Positions 2,480 to 12,145 of a DNA stretch of 13,840 nt are shown here, one piece after another. Numbering within the stretch: the stretch's first letter is position 1; every line of letters begins with the position of its first letter. The notes beneath the pieces are model-generated. The model worked only from the letters and a program-made list of their open reading frames with translations, was not told the origin of the DNA and did no database searches. The position numbers were made by a program, and so were the translations under genes. Source of the stretch: a virus; UHGV virus genome UHGV-0179107; one strand, given 5' to 3'.

Positions 2480-3397
2480 TTATTTATCAAGTAAAACCAT
2501 CTTGCCCTCTCTTAAGCGGCAATTTTGCCATGCTGGGAAGGGGTTCAATAAATCTCCGGGATTGGCTTCAGTGTCCACAATAATTTCTATCCCTTCGTTT
2601 TCTTTTAATAGATTTGCTAGACGAAAGGCTTGATCAGTAAGATGCCAATATTTAGCAGAATTCATTATTTTGCCATCAATGGTGCCTTTAATATTTTTCA
2701 TCACCTCATAGCCATAGATTTCATCACGCAATACGCTAAGTTTTACCCTTCCTTTACCTTTATATTTAGCTTTAGCTGCCAGATATGCCGCCTTTGCTTC
2801 AGAATTCGTCAGAACTGGATAACCGTAAAAATCTTTCTCACGTTTGCCAGCGTCTCTACGGCGTTCTCTGCGTTCTTTTTTAGGTTGGGAAGGGGATTGC
2901 ATTGCCTCGGGCTTTTCAGGCTGCTGTGCGGCTTGTTTTGGGGCTTCCTGAGGCTGTTCTACTTTAGCGGCAGTCTTTCCGAAAGTCTCTAAGATGCCTT
3001 CTGGAATATTTACGCCCTTCTCGATGCACATATCCAACAATTGATCAGGGGTTTTCAGCAATTCGTAATGATTAGATTTGCCTTTTTTAACAATTGAAAT
3101 AAGCCCAGCATTTTCAAGAGATTTAATAGCGCTGGCTATTTTCCCGCGATCCTTTCTGAGTTGAGTTGCCAGTTTTTGCTCTGAAATATAAATTCCCTCA
3201 CCGTTAAAATGAAAGCCCACCATTTTTCCATAAATTAACATTTCAAAGTCTGTTAAATAAAAGCGCTCTTTAACTGTTCCCGTCTTTTTATTAGAGATTG
3301 TTGTTGCTACCGGTTTATCAAAATCATACTGAATAAAGAAATCGAAAGAGGGGGTAAAAGGTGCCCCCAGTCTATTTCCTGCCATAATTTCCCCCAT
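2480..3397 (-). CDS. Putative iteron-binding replication initiator / replisome organiser (305 aa): N-terminal winged-helix domain, Q/P/E/K-rich linker, C-terminal domain
   Basis: ORF track. The N-terminal domain (KERFYLTDFEMLIYGKMVGFHF...ISEQKLATQL...AIKSLENAGLISIVKKGKSNHYEL) has the winged-helix layout of lambda-O / phage replisome-organiser type proteins, followed by a basic low-complexity linker (KKERRERRRDAGKREKD). ATG 3397 overlaps the TAA of the upstream paralog; an alternative start at 3385 gives matching MA-N N-termini in both paralogs. Confidence 0.65.
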   Translation of the reverse strand: MGEIMAGNRLGAPFTPSFDFFIQYDFDKPVATTISNKKTGTVKERFYLTDFEMLIYGKMVGFHFNGEGIYISEQKLATQLRKDRGKIASAIKSLENAGLISIVKKGKSNHYELLKTPDQLLDMCIEKGVNIPEGILETFGKTAAKVEQPQEAPKQAAQQPEKPEAMQSPSQPKKERRERRRDAGKREKDFYGYPVLTNSEAKAAYLAAKAKYKGKGRVKLSVLRDEIYGYEVMKNIKGTIDGKIMNSAKYWHLTDQAFRLANLLKENEGIEIIVDTEANPGDLLNPFPAWQNCRLREGKMVLLDK

Positions 3398-3783
3398 TAA
3401 TATATAAAATATTCTCTAATACCCTGCTCATCGCACATCTTGCCAAGCTGATCAGGGGTAATTAGCAATTCGTAGATATTCGATTTGCCCTGTTCTCGTT
3501 TAACGTTTATCAGACCTGCAGCTTCTAATGTTTTGATTGCCGACCTTACTGTTTTCTCTGTAACATCATAATCGTCTGCTAATGTCTGCGTCGAAAGCTC
3601 TGAGATAATTATTTCTTCACCCTCCTTAAAAGAATAACTTACCATTTCACCATAAATTGTTACCTCCAACAAATTTAAGTGAAATCTTTCTTTATTGGTT
3701 GCAGTTTTTGCAATCGGATTTTTAAAAGTGTATTTGATGAAACGTTTAAAAATGGGAGTAAAATTTTCATCGTTGTTTGCCAT
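3397..3783 (-). CDS. Truncated paralog of the adjacent initiator (about 128 aa): winged-helix DNA-binding domain only
   Basis: Clear paralogy with the N-terminus of the 305-aa protein (NFTPIFKRFIKYTF vs PFTPSFDFFIQYDF; GKSNIYELLITPDQLGKMCDEQG vs GKSNHYELLKTPDQLLDMCIEKG). The track start at 3798 is a TTG that overlaps the SD; ATG 3783-3781 with GGAGG 8 nt upstream is the likely start. Confidence 0.65.
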   Translation of the reverse strand: MANNDENFTPIFKRFIKYTFKNPIAKTATNKERFHLNLLEVTIYGEMVSYSFKEGEEIIISELSTQTLADDYDVTEKTVRSAIKTLEAAGLINVKREQGKSNIYELLITPDQLGKMCDEQGIREYFIY

Positions 3784-3807
3784 AATATGATCCTCCAAGA
3801 TTATTTA

Positions 3808-4017
3808 TCAAAGTAGGTGTTTATATCTTTCCAGCTCACGCTCGATGCGGATAAGGTTAAGTTTTTCTATTGCCGCTTCAATATGTGGGTATTTTCCTTT
3901 GTTACGACGGATAAAAGCATAAACAGAATTTTTATAGAACTTGCCGCTAAGCACGTTCTCTACGATTTCGTCAGTAGTCCAGTTTACCAGGGGGCTGACT
4001 GGCCCGTTGCTCGCCAT
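3808..4017 (-). CDS. Small protein (69 aa), first gene of the leftward operon
   Basis: ORF track; perfect AGGAGG (plus 4025-4030) 7 nt upstream of ATG 4017-4015. The opposite-strand ORF 3817..4077 is low-complexity and rejected. Function unknown. Confidence 0.6.
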   Translation of the reverse strand: MASNGPVSPLVNWTTDEIVENVLSGKFYKNSVYAFIRRNKGKYPHIEAAIEKLNLIRIERELERYKHLL

Positions 4018-4138
4018 AATGAGGCCTCCTATAATTCGAATCAGAATGATATACGGTTAAAAAGAAACGGGAACTAATAGCTCCCGCCAGTTAATTAAGG
4101 AAATCCACTATGATGACTTAGTGTATCCCTATGCTTTA

Positions 4139-4170
4139 TATTTTATCAGACATTCGTCAAATTGTCAACA
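4139..4170 (-). promoter_or_regulatory. Candidate sigma70 promoter for the leftward operon (-35 TTGACA, 17-nt spacer, -10 TAAAAT)
   Basis: Minus-strand reading: TGTTGACAATTTGAcgaatgtctgaTAAAAT. The first 14 nt are identical to the -35 region of the capsid promoter at 8017-8030, and the spacers are similar. About 115 nt of leader would precede ATG 4017. Confidence 0.4.
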
Positions 4171-4340
4171 ATCTTTTTGTATTTATCTATCATTTTTTCT
4201 TCAAGATTGTCGATTGCAGTCACTCCGGCTATGTAGGCAACACCGCACCACAGTACAGCCAGGTTGATGATCGCTATTGCATCAGTAATTTCCACATTGA
4301 CCTCCGGATCTGTTTCTCCCCCTATTTATAATCTTATCAT

Positions 4341-4489
4341 ATTGTCAACCAATTGTCAATGAGAATTATTATCATTTAGGTGTGCTATAGGTACAAGCAA
4401 GTCCACAGCAAAGGGGTAAGCATTATTAATGGCCCCTACCGTGTCAAAACCAAAATCACTTATAGCATTTATTCAATAAGATTGTCAAT
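4341..4489 (-). promoter_or_regulatory. Three further ATTGTCAA(C/T) sites (4341-4349, 4352-4360, 4481-4489), each a TTGACA hexamer on the minus strand
   Basis: Seen directly. With the site at 4161-4169 this makes four same-orientation copies in about 330 bp. Possible -10 elements are weak (TAAGAT, TATAAG), so these may be operators or secondary promoters. Confidence 0.35.
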
Positions 4490-4801
4490 GGCCCACAACA
4501 TGCCTTCCTGCAGAAGGTTTGATTTTAATCAAATCCACGAAGTGGACCACAGGAGGGAGAGCACTTTTTGCCTTAGGCGCTCTAAAATCAATTCTAACGC
4601 GATTTAGAGGTCAGGTAATGCAATTGCACTACTCACCACAGTTAATGCAGCCAGAAGGCCATTTAGGGGCCCTATTTTTGATTTATGAGTGTCATATTAC
4701 GTGCATGCACGCGCGGGAGACTCTTTGCTGCCTCCTTCCGGCGCTGGCAAGCTTTCGGCAGCGGTCCACATTGTGGGCCTCATGCTGACGCATTCGCCGG
4801 A

Positions 4802-4963
4802 CCCACACAGACCCGAAGGGCTTAGCCATGGGCTAAGGTGCCGTAGGCACTCCCACACACAATTGGGTGACGTGTCATGTATGGAATACATTGTCACCCC
4901 ACACACAGGCCGACGTAGTCGGTTTAGCTGTATAGCTAAAGTCACAAAGTGACCCACACACAG
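4802..4963 (+). repeat. Array of about 50-bp units, each beginning with CCCACACACAG and containing different short perfect palindromes
   Basis: Punctuation motif at 4802, 4852, 4898 and 4954. Palindromes: CTTAGCC-ATG-GGCTAAG (4821-4837), GTGCC-GTA-GGCAC (4838-4850), GGGTGAC...GTCACCC (4865-4899), CCGAC-GTA-GTCGG (4910-4922), TTAGCT-GTAT-AGCTAA (4924-4939), GTCAC-AAA-GTGAC (4941-4953). Confidence 0.6.
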
Positions 4964-5003: not shown

Positions 5004-5124
5004 GTGGGTTAAGCTTTTCCCTTAGAAAACCTTCCCCACTCTCTGATCCCTCCCCATCCCCCCTTGTTGGGGGATTATAGGGGGAGTTCTTTTTATTGAT
5101 CTATTCTCTTTATCTATTAGTGTG

Positions 5125-5270
5125 GGAAATCCCAGCATATATATGTAGGAAATTCCCGCATATATATGTTGGAAATACCAGCATATCCCTTTCTGTGTAT
5201 GGTTGAATATGCGGGAAATTCCAGCATATCGATCCCTATGCATGTGGGAACATGTGGGAAATACCGACAG
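5125..5270. repeat. Iteron array, candidate replication origin: GGAAAT-N-CC-(A/C)-GCATAT repeats
   Basis: Four 16-bp copies at 5125-5140, 5148-5163, 5171-5186 and 5214-5229. The first three are spaced exactly 23 bp (about two helical turns), the fourth is 43 bp further. Degenerate copies follow (tandem CATGTGGGAA x2 at 5241-5260; GGAAATACCGACAG at 5257-5270; GGAAATATGCAGATC at 5403-5417). Confidence 0.55.
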
Positions 5271-6332
5271 GTCTGTGTGGCTTAATTTGACTTGATATTG
5301 ACTAACAAAGGCCTTCGTAGAAGGTTTGAGATGAGCTCAAATCACCATATGTGACTAACAAACCTCTCTCCTCTCTCTTTGCTTTGATTTTCTCTCATGT
5401 GTGGGAAATATGCAGATCAACACCCTTTGATTTTATCGACAGGTATGTTGACACGCCCTACGGTTGTGAGGCCCGGGCATCATAAGTATGGCCCCTGGGG
5501 CAGTCCATCCTTCCCTCACACAGGACAATGAATACACTCCTTGCAGTCATGAATACATAAAGAACATGAAAGACTGTTCACACCAACACGCCGATAAATT
5601 GCCTGAAGAGGCTTACATGGTGGGATTGTTGTGTGGGTAATAGTGATCATGCTAACAGATTATGTTAATCAGATGTAAATTCCGATTTTGTGGTCTGCAG
5701 ATAGCAAACTATACTGGTTAGATGATCAGGGGAATGACTACAAAACAATCAAAAATGTGGGATATAGACATCTATACTTCTAATGTGCTGTGTGGGGTGT
5801 TAGTGCGTCCTAACCTCTAAGTCATTGATTTTAAGTGTTGGGAGAGATGCATTTAACATAATAGATCTTATCTACACTAATAAAGCGCACTACAAAATCT
5901 GATTTAAAAATCATGATAAGGAGGCCCAGAATTTACGTACAGTCACCTGAATAAATAATGTGCACAACATACAGCAAAGCTTAAGAATTAACATAATAGC
6001 AACGTGGTCAGTAGTGGTGTGATATTTGAGAATTGTTAGAAGAAAAAAGGGAGGTGGGGGAGCGCCTGCCTGGCACCTCAGACGAACATCTGACGGGTAT
6101 TAATACCGCTAATGGATATTTCTGACACCCACACCCAAGACCGCTTTCAGCACATAGCCATACACCGCACAGGATGCAATTGTGATAACAAAAAATGGGG
6201 GTGTAATAGGGTAGGCTGTCTTTCATCAAAATCACTTCTACGACGTTACCAGAGTGATAACAAGAAAACAGGCCTCTAAGATTATCTGTGCCTCGTTTTT
6301 AGCTTTTTGTGTGGTTACCAGGTGAAGAGGAA

Positions 6333-6571: not shown

Positions 6572-6697
6572 ATTAAATCAATAAATAGGCATTAAATACC
6601 CATTAAATACCCCTTAAATAGGGGTTAATTGCTCAGGACTGAAAGGAGTGTAAATAGGGGATAAATAGGGGTTAATTGAGGGATAAATAAAAAGGGG
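6572..6697. repeat. AT-rich direct-repeat cluster: TAAATAGGGGTTAATTG x2 plus shorter TAAATAGG and ATTAAAT copies
   Basis: 17-mer at 6615-6631 and 6662-6678 (47 bp apart); TAAATAGGGG at 6651-6660; TAAATAGG at 6582-6589; ATTAAAT at 6572, 6591 and 6603. Lies just beyond the terminator of the membrane-protein operon. Confidence 0.55.
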
Positions 6698-7294: not shown

Positions 7295-7555
7295 TTACTT
7301 AGCTTTCTTGAATCTCCCGTCCTCCTTTCTTTCGATATTGTGGTAGTCGGCATAGGCTTTCAGCCTTCTGTGCACGGTGGCTATCCCCACACCGAAGGTT
7401 TTAGCAATAACCTGTCGTGGTGTTCCCTCCTCGACCATCTTAAACATCTGTGCCGCTACATCCATTTGTGCGGCTATCTCCATTTGCTTTGCCTTTGCTT
7501 TAACTTCAGCTATCAGCTCTTCCCTCAGTCTCCTGATATCTTTAGCCCCCGTCAT
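7295..7555 (-). CDS. Small DNA-binding protein (86 aa): N-terminal coiled coil, C-terminal resolvase/Hin-type HTH
   Basis: ORF track. The segment TPRQVIAKTFGVGIATVHRRLKAY fits the resolvase-type HTH pattern (IA...GV...TV.R.L). GAGGAG precedes ATG 7555-7553. Confidence 0.6.
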   Translation of the reverse strand: MTGAKDIRRLREELIAEVKAKAKQMEIAAQMDVAAQMFKMVEEGTPRQVIAKTFGVGIATVHRRLKAYADYHNIERKEDGRFKKAK

Positions 7556-7597
7556 AAACTCCTCTCAATGCTGTTCATAAACTCATCTCAATGATGA
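7552..7597. repeat. Tandem 23-bp duplication spanning the RBS and start codon of the HTH gene
   Basis: Plus strand TCATAAACTCCTCTCAATGCTGT (7552-7574) and TCATAAACTCATCTCAATGATGA (7575-7597). On the minus strand the upstream copy creates an 8-codon uORF (MNSIERSL) whose TGA overlaps the HTH start codon. Confidence 0.6.
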
Positions 7598-8016: not shown

Positions 8017-8047
8017 TGTTGACAATTTGAGAGAATACTGATATAAT
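8017..8047 (+). promoter_or_regulatory. Consensus sigma70 promoter upstream of the capsid genes
   Basis: TTGACA (8019-8024), 17-nt spacer, TATAAT (8042-8047), with an AT-rich UP-like tract upstream (7985-8015). The 14-mer TGTTGACAATTTGA (8017-8030) is identical to the reverse complement of 4157-4170. Confidence 0.6.
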
Positions 8048-8190
8048 ATACATATACACCGTAAATCTTTGGTGAAAGTGATTTGCCGTATTTTCCTCCA
8101 AAGTAAAGGCGACCAGGTAGCGGTGCCGCCTTATAAATAACACTACCCTGATCATCGTTGAGTGGTCGATTAATTCTCCTATTGGGCTAG

Positions 8191-8199
8191 TTATCCACA
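8191..8199 (+). promoter_or_regulatory. Perfect DnaA-box consensus TTATCCACA in the capsid leader
   Basis: Exact 9-mer seen directly. It overlaps the left arm of an 8-bp inverted repeat CCACACAG / CTGTGTGG (8195-8202 and 8221-8228). Only one copy, so a chance match is possible. Confidence 0.3.
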
Positions 8200-8366
8200 C
8201 AGTTTTCTTTTGCGGGTTTTCTGTGTGGGTAGCTATCCCGAAAGGTATTTCCCCGCTGATGTGACCGCAGCCTGAACTGATTCGGGGGAGTGCCTTTCGT
8301 GATAGTGCTCTCAAGCAACCGTAACCATGTGCTATCAGCCAACTTTGTTGGTTTTCCTCATGTGGA

Positions 8367-8396
8367 ATAGCCCCCGCTTGGACGGTGCGGGGCTAT
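8367..8396 (+). terminator. Terminator-like or attenuator hairpin in the capsid leader
   Basis: ATAGCCCC(C)GC / GCGGGGCTAT stem with one bulged C and a 9-nt loop, followed by a pyrimidine-rich but imperfect U-tract (CTCCCTCTTCTTAT). Lies between the promoter and the first capsid-module gene. Confidence 0.3.
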
Positions 8397-8525
8397 CTCC
8401 CTCTTCTTATATCAATCTCCCTTTTAATAGATTTCCGGCATAACTTTTCGGCCCGAGCCTGTCGTAGTTCTAGAGGTTATGCCGGAACTCTTTGAGGGGA
8501 GTTAATTTAAATCGCAGGTGATCAA

Positions 8526-8861
8526 ATGAGAGATATGACTATCCGCACACGCGGACACATCATTTCATACGCCGCAGATGAGCAATTCTCTATTCGTGAC
8601 GTGGAAGTGAAAAATAAAGTTAAGGCTGAGATCCCGGCCGGCACTGTTGTTGTGGTGACTGAGGCTGGCGAGGTTGAGACCTTCGTTAAAGCAACGCACA
8701 CCGGTAAAACTCCGCTGCTGGTTGTAGAACGTGCTGAGGTTGGTGATGCTTTTATCGTTGTTGCCAACAAAGGCTGTTATATCAATCCGGCCTACGTGGA
8801 TAAAGACGGCTTAGCCGCTGTTATCGCTGCCAGCAATGGCGATCTGCGTGTTGCACAATAA
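8526..8861 (+). CDS. Putative head decoration or accessory capsid protein (111 aa), immediately upstream of the major capsid gene
   Basis: ORF track; AGGTG 5 nt upstream of ATG 8526. Codon usage looks typical of highly expressed genes. Position and size parallel lambda D relative to E, but no direct sequence similarity was recognised, so the product call is positional. Confidence 0.55.
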   Translation: MRDMTIRTRGHIISYAADEQFSIRDVEVKNKVKAEIPAGTVVVVTEAGEVETFVKATHTGKTPLLVVERAEVGDAFIVVANKGCYINPAYVDKDGLAAVIAASNGDLRVAQ

Positions 8862-8872
8862 GGAGGTTGAAG

Positions 8873-9919
8873 ATGGCTAAAAAAGAATTCGAAGTTCGCG
8901 ATCTGTGTGGTCTGATTAAAGACATCCCGCTGGATAACCAGATTATTTCAGCAATGGATATCTTTAACACTACTGCTCTGTGCAATACCTTTAAATTTGA
9001 ATATGACAAAGTCCGCCAGGTGAAACAAACCGCTTTCGGTCAGTATCCGCGCTACGGTGAACAGATGGCGACCATTACCGCAGATGAGCGTGAAACGGGC
9101 ACGGGTGATATGGCATTCACTGCCGCATCCAGTGCTATTTATCCTTCTGACTGGCAGGGTATTCGTGTTCCGGGCAAAGATTCCGAAGAGAATTTAGAGT
9201 CTGTTACCGCTCGGCGTGTTATTCAGTTGGGTGAAGGCTTACGCCAGACCCATGAAGAAGCACGCCAGCTTGCTCTCTTTGAGAACAAAATTATCCTCAC
9301 CAAGGGTAAAGAACTGAATGTGTGCGAACTGCTGGGCGCACAGCAAACCACCTCGGAAGTGGATTTAGCTAAAGATATCCTTAAACAGCTGCAGGACCTG
9401 GTTGCACTGAGCAAGATTAAACAGCGTGGTGTCGTTCGCGCTCTTCGTGGTTTCACCCTGTTCTGCCGTGCTGAGCTCTTTGCTGCAATTCAGACTGATG
9501 AACTGTTGAGAAAAGTGCTGTTGTTCGGCAATCAGAATATTACCGACAAAGGTCTGATGTTCCCTGAGGATATTCTGCCGGGCTTCCCGACCTTCCGCAT
9601 TCCGGGCTTAGCCCTGCGTGTGGTGCAAATGGATAGTCTGCCAGAGAATACTGCTTATCTGGTCCCACAATTCCAGCCACATGCGTTAGGCGATATGGTG
9701 GGCGTTTATACTCAATTTTTCGGCCCTTGCGCTCGCAACTTGAAGCTTGCAAACGGCGCTGCACGTGAAGCTTTCATGTATATGGAAGAGTCCAGAGGTA
9801 AACGAGAAATCTTCATTGAATCCTCTTATGCTTTCATGAACATGATGCCTGAGGTTGTGGTTAAAGTGAGTGTTAGTAACTCCGCCGCCGCTGCTCTGGC
9901 AAAAGCCAAGGCTAAATAA
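8873..9919 (+). CDS. Major capsid protein, lambda gpE-like family (348 aa from ATG 8873)
   Basis: Track start 8867 is a TTG; ATG 8873 has a perfect AGGAGG 6 nt upstream. Size and the C-terminal LPENTAYLVP segment parallel lambda gpE (341 aa; LPDNTMVLG), recalled from memory. Confidence 0.8.
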   Translation: MAKKEFEVRDLCGLIKDIPLDNQIISAMDIFNTTALCNTFKFEYDKVRQVKQTAFGQYPRYGEQMATITADERETGTGDMAFTAASSAIYPSDWQGIRVPGKDSEENLESVTARRVIQLGEGLRQTHEEARQLALFENKIILTKGKELNVCELLGAQQTTSEVDLAKDILKQLQDLVALSKIKQRGVVRALRGFTLFCRAELFAAIQTDELLRKVLLFGNQNITDKGLMFPEDILPGFPTFRIPGLALRVVQMDSLPENTAYLVPQFQPHALGDMVGVYTQFFGPCARNLKLANGAAREAFMYMEESRGKREIFIESSYAFMNMMPEVVVKVSVSNSAAAALAKAKAK

Positions 9920-9950
9920 GGTCCTTCTTCGAAGGCCAAATAAAAGCAAA

Positions 9951-9999
9951 GGGAAGAGGTGAGAGATCGGGGATAGGTCTTTCCCTCTTCCCTTTTTTT
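9951..9999 (+). terminator. Strong rho-independent terminator after the major capsid gene
   Basis: GGGAAGAGG (9951-9959) pairs with CCTCTTCCC (9984-9992), followed by TTTTTTT (9993-9999). A small CCTTC-TTC-GAAGG hairpin (9923-9935) sits just after the stop codon. Confidence 0.7.
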
Positions 10000-10033
10000 A
10001 TTATCCCCGTCTTAAGTTTTTGAGGTGTCTTTT

Positions 10034-10285
10034 ATGAAAATTGTTTTATACGGCGACCGTGACGACGTGCCTTTTGATATTATCCATATCGATGACGAGG
10101 ATCTGCCGGAATTCCTGCGTATCTCCACATTTGCCGCCTGCTATGACGTTAGCCGCCAGGCTATGCACAAGTACCGTGAATATAATAAATGCACCTGGGC
10201 CGAGACTTTCGAACATTTTATTGCACGCAAACAAACCCAGGACCGCAAAAAAGCCCTGAATGCGCATAATCGTTTTGCAAAATAA
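10034..10285 (+). CDS. Small protein (84 aa), acidic N-terminus and a possible HTH
   Basis: Track start 10025 is a GTG; ATG 10034 has GAGGTG about 7 nt upstream. The segment LRISTFAACYDVSRQAMHKY looks HTH-like by eye. Function unknown. Confidence 0.5.
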   Translation: MKIVLYGDRDDVPFDIIHIDDEDLPEFLRISTFAACYDVSRQAMHKYREYNKCTWAETFEHFIARKQTQDRKKALNAHNRFAK

Positions 10286-10359
10286 CGATAGATAGCCCTG
10301 TCTTTTTATCAGAATTCACACAGGGCCACCAAAAGATTCAATTTGGAGGCATGTTTAAT

Positions 10360-11163
10360 ATGGCTAGTGATGCTCTGACAGCTGCAAAACAAGCTGAGTC
10401 GAGATCTCCTGCATTCACTGTTATGTGTGGGGGATATTCACAAAACAAAAATATAATGGATGGCTTCAACTATACCGATAATGTGGCTATCTTCTTTGAC
10501 TCTATCTCTGATGTCAGCTATTCGTTCCCTGTTGAGAAATCGAGCTATGCGGTCGAGGATGGCACCACCATGTCAGACCATGCCGTCATTAAAGATAAAT
10601 CTGTCAGCTTTACGGGTATTATTACCTCTTCCCCTCATATCATCCGGAAAGAGAACTACATTGACCGGAACACTGATCCAGATAATCCCCGTGAGTCTAT
10701 GCGCCCTGCTGCCGCTGTTCAGGCACTTATGGAAATGAGAGACAAGCGCCAGCTAGTCAGCCTGGTGAGTGAAGATGCCGGACTCCTTGAGAACTTCATC
10801 ATGACGAAATGTGAAGTTAAGCGTAGCTCTTCCTCTGGCGACTGCATCACTATTGATTGCACCTTTGAAGAATTCCGCACCTTCAAGGTGAAGATGGTCG
10901 AAAATGCCGGAGTCTTCACTAACAGCAAGAAGGTGAACAAAACACAGCAAAAGGGTGCTGTTAACAGTGCTAAAGAGGGTAGTAACGCTGGCAATGCTGC
11001 TACGAAATCCACCAGGGCTAAGCATCGCGGGGAATATGCACAGGGAGAGGCAGCGGGAAAGATTGCCGCAGGTGATAAGTCTGTTGTGTCGAACGAGTTC
11101 CACGAAACGATGATCGATAAGGCCAACATGTTGCTTGATGACATAACGGAGATCAATAAATGA
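10360..11163 (+). CDS. Phage morphogenesis-module protein of unknown role (267 aa), with a Lys/Ala/Gly-rich low-complexity C-terminus
   Basis: ORF track 10351..11163. GGAGG (10345-10349) is 1 nt from ATG 10351 but 10 nt from ATG 10360, so 10360 is preferred. The stop overlaps the next start (ATGA at 11160-11163). Confidence 0.55.
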   Translation: MASDALTAAKQAESRSPAFTVMCGGYSQNKNIMDGFNYTDNVAIFFDSISDVSYSFPVEKSSYAVEDGTTMSDHAVIKDKSVSFTGIITSSPHIIRKENYIDRNTDPDNPRESMRPAAAVQALMEMRDKRQLVSLVSEDAGLLENFIMTKCEVKRSSSSGDCITIDCTFEEFRTFKVKMVENAGVFTNSKKVNKTQQKGAVNSAKEGSNAGNAATKSTRAKHRGEYAQGEAAGKIAAGDKSVVSNEFHETMIDKANMLLDDITEINK

Positions 11164-12007: not shown

Positions 12008-12036
12008 CGCCCCGCATCAAAAGGATACCGGAGAAG

Positions 12037-12067
12037 AGCCCCTTTGTTAACACTTAGGGGCTTTTTT
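12037..12067 (+). terminator. Intrinsic terminator, plus-strand orientation
   Basis: AGCCCCT (12037-12043) pairs with AGGGGCT (12056-12062) around a 12-nt loop, followed by TTTTT (12063-12067). The minus-strand side has an A-run before the stem and no U-tract after it. Confidence 0.5.
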
Positions 12068-12145
12068 CTTGCCTGGAGTTTATCCGGTTAAGCTAACTTA
12101 TTGATTTTGATCACAATATCAGTAAAGCTGCACTATCTTCCAGCA

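Follow-up and report, generated by a model that had tools for sequence, protein, structure and literature searches.

Clustered RTTGACAAT boxes as probable -35 regions of co-directional promoters on a satellite-like 13.8-kb plasmid

In the E. coli trp promoter, from which Ptac was derived, the TrpR operator overlaps the -10 region and not the -35 box. Tandem co-directional promoters are familiar from rrn (P1/P2) and gal (P1/P2), the operators of phage lambda are 17-bp dyads located beside the repressor gene, and the phage-plasmid P1 carries scattered C1 operators that follow an asymmetric 17-mer, ATTGCTCTAATAAATTT. Rep proteins often repress their own promoters via repeated sites, and control by termination within a leader is established for satellite P4 and for the phage-plasmids P1 and N15. 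Here, we compare with these systems a cluster of short repeated boxes in a window of 13,840 bases (the whole stretch of DNA that was analysed); searches of the literature by topic and by accession number did not turn up a paper on the element or on its promoters.

The window represents one whole circular element of 13.8 kb, opened within the tape-measure gene: joining its two ends gives a 714-codon frame that spans the junction. Circular plasmids of 13.2-13.7 kb from E. coli are closely related to it, being present in 7 of 5,426 complete genomes and never chromosomal, and many contigs of 13.3-14.4 kb from E. coli, Shigella, and E. albertii represent further relatives. One plasmid record (NZ_CP043822.1; 39,610 bp) matches the element in three places, which corresponds to ~3 x 13.2 kb, and may be a trimer or concatemer. 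The element has its own capsid, tail-initiator, tail-completion, and tape-measure genes in addition to a plasmid Rep and iteron module. Its tail-tube initiator is ~51% identical to the counterpart in rV5-like phages (Vequintavirus), its major capsid protein is distantly related to the capsid proteins of large myoviruses, and no terminase or portal gene was found in the element. A search with the whole window against phage genomes gave no match, the relatives coming from plasmid and E. coli collections, and scans of genome and viral contigs with the capsid protein were also without a match. Since its relatives are plasmids only, its structural genes are rV5-like, and terminase and portal genes are lacking, the element resembles a satellite of virulent rV5-like phages that is carried as a plasmid; probably it has not been described before, and an rV5-like phage is the likely helper.

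The initial annotation had pointed to four ATTGTCAAY sites of the same orientation upstream of the early operon, each placing TTGACA on the minus strand, and to the same core over the -35 box of the capsid promoter in the opposite orientation. These observations were borne out: exact matches lie on the plus strand at 4161-4169 (site 1), 4341-4349 (site 2), 4352-4360 (site 3), and 4481-4489 (site 4), all four with TTGACA on the minus strand, and a fifth, capsid-side copy lies on the minus strand at 8018-8026, with TTGACA on the plus strand. Five exact matches in the 13,840-base window compare with 0.41 expected, a count reached in 0 of 200 dinucleotide-preserving shuffles, and the 8-mer TTGACAAT is found at the same five places (0.80 expected; 1 of 200 shuffles). 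On the transcribed strand, all five boxes read RTTGACAAT, each with a perfect TTGACA. The window holds nine TTGACA hexamers in total, six of them within 4160-4490 and all six leftward-reading, including one at 4442-4447 that the initial annotation did not list. When one mismatch to ATTGTCAAY was allowed, 10 matches were obtained against 8.5 expected; the one-mismatch count being near chance, the copies are sharp and have no degenerate family around them. One degenerate sixth copy, ATTGTCGAT, is located on the minus strand at 4206-4214 inside a 49-codon ORF (minus-strand reading ATCGACAAT; repeat family D11). The form shared by sites 3 and 4, ATTGTCAAT, is a 9-bp palindrome (ATTG-T-CAAT) found at only two of the five sites, and sites 2 and 3 are direct copies separated by 11 bp, or one helical turn. 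Scans of viral and genome contigs for the exact tandem-box pattern returned unrelated sequences only, apparently by chance.

The boxes are probably ordinary control signals in a little-known element, and we put at roughly 70% the probability that they represent the -35 regions of co-directional sigma-70 promoters starting the leftward operon. A consensus scan of the whole element, with matches scored out of 12, yielded 24 promoter-like sites, a number not above chance, and its three best matches are motif sites. These three alone among the high-scoring sites have a TG-extended -10 box. For the composite pattern TTGACA-N13-15-TGnTAnnnT, the window has three matches against 0.03 expected (0 of 200 shuffles reached three), with the same 17-nt spacing (TTGACA-N17) at site 1, site 3, and the capsid copy. 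Promoter P1, at site 1 (4140..4168, minus strand), combines a -35 TTGACA at 4168..4163, a 17-nt spacer, TG at 4148..4147, and a -10 TAAAAT at 4145..4140 (TTGACA-17-TGaTAAAAT, 11/12 with TG in the consensus scan); its start would lie near 4133. The promoter overlaps the last codons and the stop of the 49-codon ORF, with the -10 box directly after the stop codon, and site 1 itself supplies the codons V-D-N (GTT GAC AAT) of that frame. Promoter P3, at site 3 (4331..4359, minus strand), consists of TTGACA at 4359..4354, TG at 4339..4338, and a -10 TAAGAT at 4336..4331 (TTGACA-17-TGaTAAGAT, 10/12 with TG), and is predicted to start transcription near 4324. The capsid-operon promoter (8019..8047, plus strand) carries the fifth box and scores 12/12 (TTGACA-17-TATAAT with TG).

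Site 2 (4341..4349 on the minus strand, GTTGACAAT) lies in the spacer of P3, downstream of site 3. No -10 box is present 16-18 bp away (the nearest TATAAA is at 12-13 nt), and neither promoter scan listed the site; for want of a correctly placed -10, it cannot be a -35 box and is putatively a spare -35-like copy. At site 4, a putative promoter P4 (4459..4488, minus strand) would comprise TTGACA at 4488..4483, an 18-nt spacer, TGc, and TATAAG at 4464..4459, a -10 that is without the final T and fails the -10 rule of the scan; a weaker, dispensable promoter is plausible here. Thus, the suggestion that the sites are stacked promoters stands for sites 1 and 3 and the capsid copy, which are the best sigma-70 matches and are conserved, is plausible for a weaker site 4, and falls for site 2. 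Set against a reading as plain promoters are an identity past the hexamer that exceeds the needs of sigma-70 recognition, the exact helical turn that separates site 3 from a site 2 devoid of a -10, and the loss at site 4 of a conserved -10 base.

Comparison with other promoters bears on this extra identity. Site 1 and the capsid promoter have in common the 11-mer TGTTGACAATT, which also forms the -35 region of the trp promoter in E. coli and stands directly upstream of trpL in 5,188 of 5,426 E. coli genomes, so the extended context exists in a classical strong host promoter. Within the element, the capsid promoter and P1 are 74% similar over 46 nt (repeat pair I1), and a stretch of the 49-codon ORF (4188-4217) is 77% like the 30-nt context of site 4, a score matched in 1 of 500 shuffles; part of the identity beyond the hexamer may thus have arisen by copying of promoter cassettes. 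Most simply, the two extra shared bases (TTGACA-AT) would be a favourable or inherited promoter context.

The arrangement of genes fits promoters at these positions, with P3 placed before an RBS and GTG, and P1 before a terminator that is itself followed by an RBS and ATG. The first gene after P3 is the 49-codon ORF (4146..4295, minus strand; VEITDAIAIINLAVLWCGVAYIAGVTAIDNLEEKMIDKYKKIVDNLTNV), whose RBS (GGAGG, 4305..4301) and GTG start (4295) lie ~30 nt downstream of the promoter. Its translation predicts one hydrophobic helix followed by a charged tail, i.e., a membrane-type peptide, and it is an annotated CDS in all relatives, with 90-100% DNA identity across the family. An intrinsic terminator found by the terminator scan (4058..4088, minus strand; a GC-rich hairpin with its stem at 4088..4066, then a T-run) is positioned 45-75 nt downstream of the predicted P1 start and upstream of a 69-codon ORF and the Rep genes; its RNA fold has an energy of -23.9 kcal/mol (z = -3.4). 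The 69-codon ORF (3808..4017, minus strand), with an RBS and ATG, is the first gene after the terminator and is followed by two Rep-like winged-helix genes (3397-3798 and 2480-3397, minus strand) identified by PHROG and Pfam matches. The leftward operon runs from the 49-codon ORF through the 69-codon ORF, the two Rep/DnaD/O-like winged-helix genes, and several unknown genes to the tape-measure gene; the genes next to the cluster encode the 49-residue peptide and the 69-residue protein with no family match.

If the boxes are promoters, host sigma-70 polymerase would transcribe leftward from P3, P1, and perhaps P4, the last as a weaker upstream promoter in an optional cassette, and rightward from the capsid promoter, with the fifth box as its -35. 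Transcription from P3 would cover the small membrane-peptide gene. Transcripts from P1 would meet the conserved intrinsic terminator ahead of the replication genes, so most of them should end as an RNA of ~75 nt, and read-through would supply Rep and the downstream genes; promoter activity, start points, and read-through are here deduced from sequence. The segment 4058-4134 (minus strand) could constitute a small RNA or attenuator for copy-number control. The terminator is present in all haplotypes; in the relative L003, the leader is of unrelated sequence and brings a GC hairpin and a U-run of its own. No covariation was seen in the P1 leader hairpin among close haplotypes. This independent replacement in L003 argues for the terminator as the one supported part of the P1 leader.

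On the capsid side, the rightward operon encodes a 111-residue protein, the major capsid protein, a Dit-like tail-tube initiator, and a tail-completion protein, and ~480 nt of leader (8048-8525) separate the promoter from the first ORF at 8526. Within this leader, CCACACAG is present twice in inverted orientation (8178-8202 and 8221-8245), a GC hairpin lies at 8369-8395, and 8429-8491 holds a 16-nt inverted repeat. On a resident plasmid, a 12/12 promoter ahead of capsid genes would come at a cost unless it were sometimes repressed, and capsid-gene control may reside within the 480-nt leader. Taken together, consensus promoters, a terminator before the replication genes, and a long capsid leader would place control after initiation or in an unseen factor.

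Conservation was assessed in 24 elements, that is, the window and 23 relatives, which represent 19 distinct haplotypes of the cluster region and range from 31 to 100% in Rep identity. The composite promoter pattern has exactly three matches, at homologous places, in each of the 23 relatives, and the capsid promoter is conserved in all of them. All 24 elements agree in the P1 -35 box, including its AAT tail, and in TGATAAAAT, and likewise in the P3 hexamer and TGATAAGAT. Variation affects the remainder: the P1 spacer exists as two haplotypes differing at 5 positions, the tail of site 3 changes from AAT to ATT in 6/24 elements (sites 2 and 3 between them showing the tails ATT and AGT in six), and site 2 appears as GTTGACAGT in 6/24 and as GTTGTCAAT in 6/24, its hexamer being TTGTCA in six elements other than those with changed tails. 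Across the 19 haplotypes, the promoter elements of P1 and P3 are thus kept more than spacer, tails, and flanks. Site 4 is present in 19/24 elements, with G or A as the last base of its -10, and is missing together with a ~100-bp cassette (~4395-4490) from the other five (L004, L007, L008, and L179/L180). Conservation of the four clustered sites in related elements, a point raised in the initial annotation, holds for the hexamers of sites 1 and 3, while site 4 is optional and site 2 drifts. Two more distant Rep relatives, L190 and L191, are represented by short contigs in which no boxes were found. The architecture of the boxes, their statistical excess, and their conservation are direct observations.

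These patterns bear on the proposal, also contained in the initial annotation, of a multi-site operator comparable to OR/OL arrays or to scattered operators in phage-plasmids. As an explanation for the boxes, it would have a protein bound to RTTGACAAT, or to the palindrome ATTGnCAAT, occlude the -35 boxes of P1, P3, P4, and the capsid promoter and keep both operons co-regulated until the helper phage infects. An identity of 8-9 nt at all five sites, beyond the hexamer, agrees with such a role, as do the same box on both divergent transcription units, the direct copies at sites 2 and 3 with no -10 partner for site 2, and the need to silence a perfect-consensus capsid promoter. The variants speak otherwise: in six relatives, sites 2 and 3 retain TTGACA without the tail or palindrome, whereas in six others site 2 keeps the palindrome halves and loses the hexamer, so no single protein-binding consensus is kept at site 2. 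No inverted repeat of at least 8 nt within 30 nt exists anywhere in 4100-4520, and hence no such dyad around any site; one-mismatch copies are not in excess; site 4 is dispensable; and the same 11-mer occurs in the trp promoter.

The binding protein could be encoded by the helper or by the element, where the best candidate is an 86-residue HTH_7 protein (7295-7555), 92-100% conserved across the family, as are the boxes. Its gene is 3 kb from the cluster, its likeness to the Hin DNA-binding domain is weak (E = 0.0014), and it is the only conserved HTH gene, no cI-like repressor gene adjoining the cluster. The distribution of the three site haplotypes follows that of no DNA-binding protein variant of the element. 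We therefore consider an additional operator function unlikely, and the multi-site operator was not upheld, lacking a dyad, degenerate copies, an adjacent cI-like repressor, and co-variation with DNA-binding proteins. Nor did an operator of the phage-plasmid type emerge, the 17-bp C1 consensus of phage-plasmid P1 having no match in the window with up to 3 mismatches allowed. Also unlikely, in our estimate, is the fuller scheme in which the RTTGACAAT boxes double as a satellite switch: one conserved small DNA-binding protein, or a helper early protein, would sit on the -35 of all strong promoters, with sites 2-3 acting cooperatively, repress the operons for capsid and replication as long as the element is in the carrier state, and free both together upon infection by an rV5-like virulent phage. 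Around the HTH_7 gene, a 22-nt direct repeat (7552-7596) duplicates the RBS and start region and creates an 8-codon mini-ORF whose stop overlaps the ATG of the gene.

The boxes lie just upstream of the replication genes, a position at which they might serve as iterons or auto-operators for the Rep or winged-helix proteins of the element. The Rep module is highly variable among relatives, however, its proteins diverging to 31-50% identity while the boxes are unchanged, and separate 23-nt iterons at 5121-5275 change with Rep type. The constancy of the boxes across divergent Rep types led us to reject this reading, which is almost certainly wrong. The repeats at 5121-5275 are five 23-nt direct copies (TGTGGGAAATCCCAGCATATATA), replaced at the same place by different units in other Rep types, and appear to behave as expected of replication-origin iterons.

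The preferred reading, that of -35 regions of sigma-70 promoters, can also be viewed from the side of the likely helper. The rV5-like phage MaxTheCat contains 22 matches of the composite promoter class, often with G before TTGACA. The design shared by site 1, site 3, and the capsid copy is a consensus TTGACA with an extended -10, TGnTAnnnT; as this design is abundant in rV5-like phages too, host RNA polymerase should recognise it without an extra factor. The AT that follows TTGACA at 5/5 motif sites follows only 18 of the 175 TTGACA hexamers in MaxTheCat; the AAT tail is therefore not a general feature of helper promoters, and a helper-generic -35 context was rejected as its source.

In a further proposal, which we hold to be very unlikely, the promoters are tuned to the transcription programme of the helper, and an extended -10 copying TGnTAAAATA is the main point of the design; transcription of the operons would then continue, or increase, late in infection, with the -35 mattering mainly in uninfected cells. 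TGnTAAAATA occurs 10 times in MaxTheCat (2.4 expected; e.g., at 3927, 8436, 11957, 26112, 31383, and 37714). Six copies lie on the coding strand immediately before structural genes, and the partner of the motif is in most cases a -35 box of the TTGC or TTGA type. The motif may be a late promoter signal of this phage, although the signal derives from one genome and was obtained by eye and a simple count. One of the six copies, ATTGACAAT-N12-TGGTAAAATA, stands before the genes preceding the tape-measure gene. P1 provides the only exact match in the window (TGATAAAATA) and the capsid promoter is one base off (TGATATAATA), whereas P3 and P4 have no match, and the proposal explains the -10 side and not the repeated 9-mer. 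We know of no factor that reads TGnTAAAATA. A weak inference from this one genome is that the satellite promoters may stay usable during infection. A 40-kb contig from the Logan assembly of SRR32969907 (L192) represents an rV5-like phage 95-98% identical to MaxTheCat in which, at 9781-10507, a homologue of the 69-codon ORF and a truncated Rep-like winged-helix gene replace ~1.6 kb of early-region DNA; it is either a helper-satellite gene exchange or an assembly chimera.

Other sequences of the element are more widely scattered or shared than the boxes. The motif CCCACACA has 11 copies in the window against 0.32 expected (0 of 200 shuffles), located on the plus strand at 4802, 4852, 4898, and 4953, on the minus strand at 5398, 5630, 5789, 7722, and 8222, and also at 539 and 10424, and the shorter CCACACA occurs 17 times against 1.2 expected. 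Found mostly in non-coding DNA, CCCACACA has 6-11 copies in every relative and 20 in MaxTheCat, six of these in its 2.5-kb non-coding stretch, and is a much stronger scattered motif than ATTGTCAAY. A non-coding, structured 63-nt segment at 4704-4772 (extending to about 4618-4790) is shared between the element and rV5-like phages: 119 Vequintavirus records, and nothing else, contain a stretch 82-87% identical to it, present in single copy and mostly without annotation. The 6-bp stem of the segment shows compensatory changes (GCTGCC/GGCAGC in the satellite versus ACCGAC/GTCGGT in the phages) around an invariant loop, and it may be a shared structured RNA or a helper-recognised DNA site for packaging or an origin. 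About half of the satellites have this version; the others have a different hairpin (the L003-type variant of the phage-like segment), for which no phage match was found. A search of the window against Rfam gave only a sub-threshold ctRNA match at 12032-12072 and none in the cluster region or at 4704-4772. An array of 11-bp repeats (TAAATAGGGG and variants; families D2 and D3) is present at 6582-6689, adjoining the terminator of a 172-residue gene.

As promoters, the boxes map three, possibly four, transcription starts of a compact 13.8-kb plasmid, and they are the first thing to map in any study of this family as a satellite of the virulent coliphages employed in phage therapy and typing. Their surroundings hold more interest than the boxes themselves, namely the satellite-like plasmid, the CCCACACA motif, and the structured 63-nt segment.

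With regard to the systems described at the outset, the likeness to lambda OR/OL proposed in the initial annotation extends to closely spaced repeats over promoter elements, two of them one helical turn apart. It goes no further: the unit here is 9 bp long and is not part of a larger dyad, a repressor gene is not found next to it, and sequence changes leave the polymerase hexamer, not the symmetry, intact. As with the C1 operators of phage-plasmid P1, one short motif stands at several promoters of an extrachromosomal phage-related element, which unlike phage-plasmid P1 has neither a C1 operator match nor a C1-like gene; if any motif is a scattered-site candidate here, it is CCCACACA. Satellite P4 and the phage-plasmids P1 and N15 resemble the element in that, ahead of the replication genes, a strong promoter leads within ~75 nt into a structured leader and a terminator, a likeness that is architectural only, since no sequence similarity and no complementary RNA or target was found.

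The trp promoter shares with the element TTGACA at -35 and the 17-nt spacing, and the TGn extension is common to the element and the rV5-like phage. Unlike trp and the early promoters of rV5-like phages, the element has three to four promoters of one direction, their activity predicted from sequence, within 350 bp, one of them inside a coding sequence. To our knowledge, no regulator has been described for these tandem promoters. They differ from rrn and gal in the intrinsic terminator and the small gene placed between the promoters and the main operon, and resemble them in forming a series that would feed one operon, an arrangement that allows different strengths or regulation.
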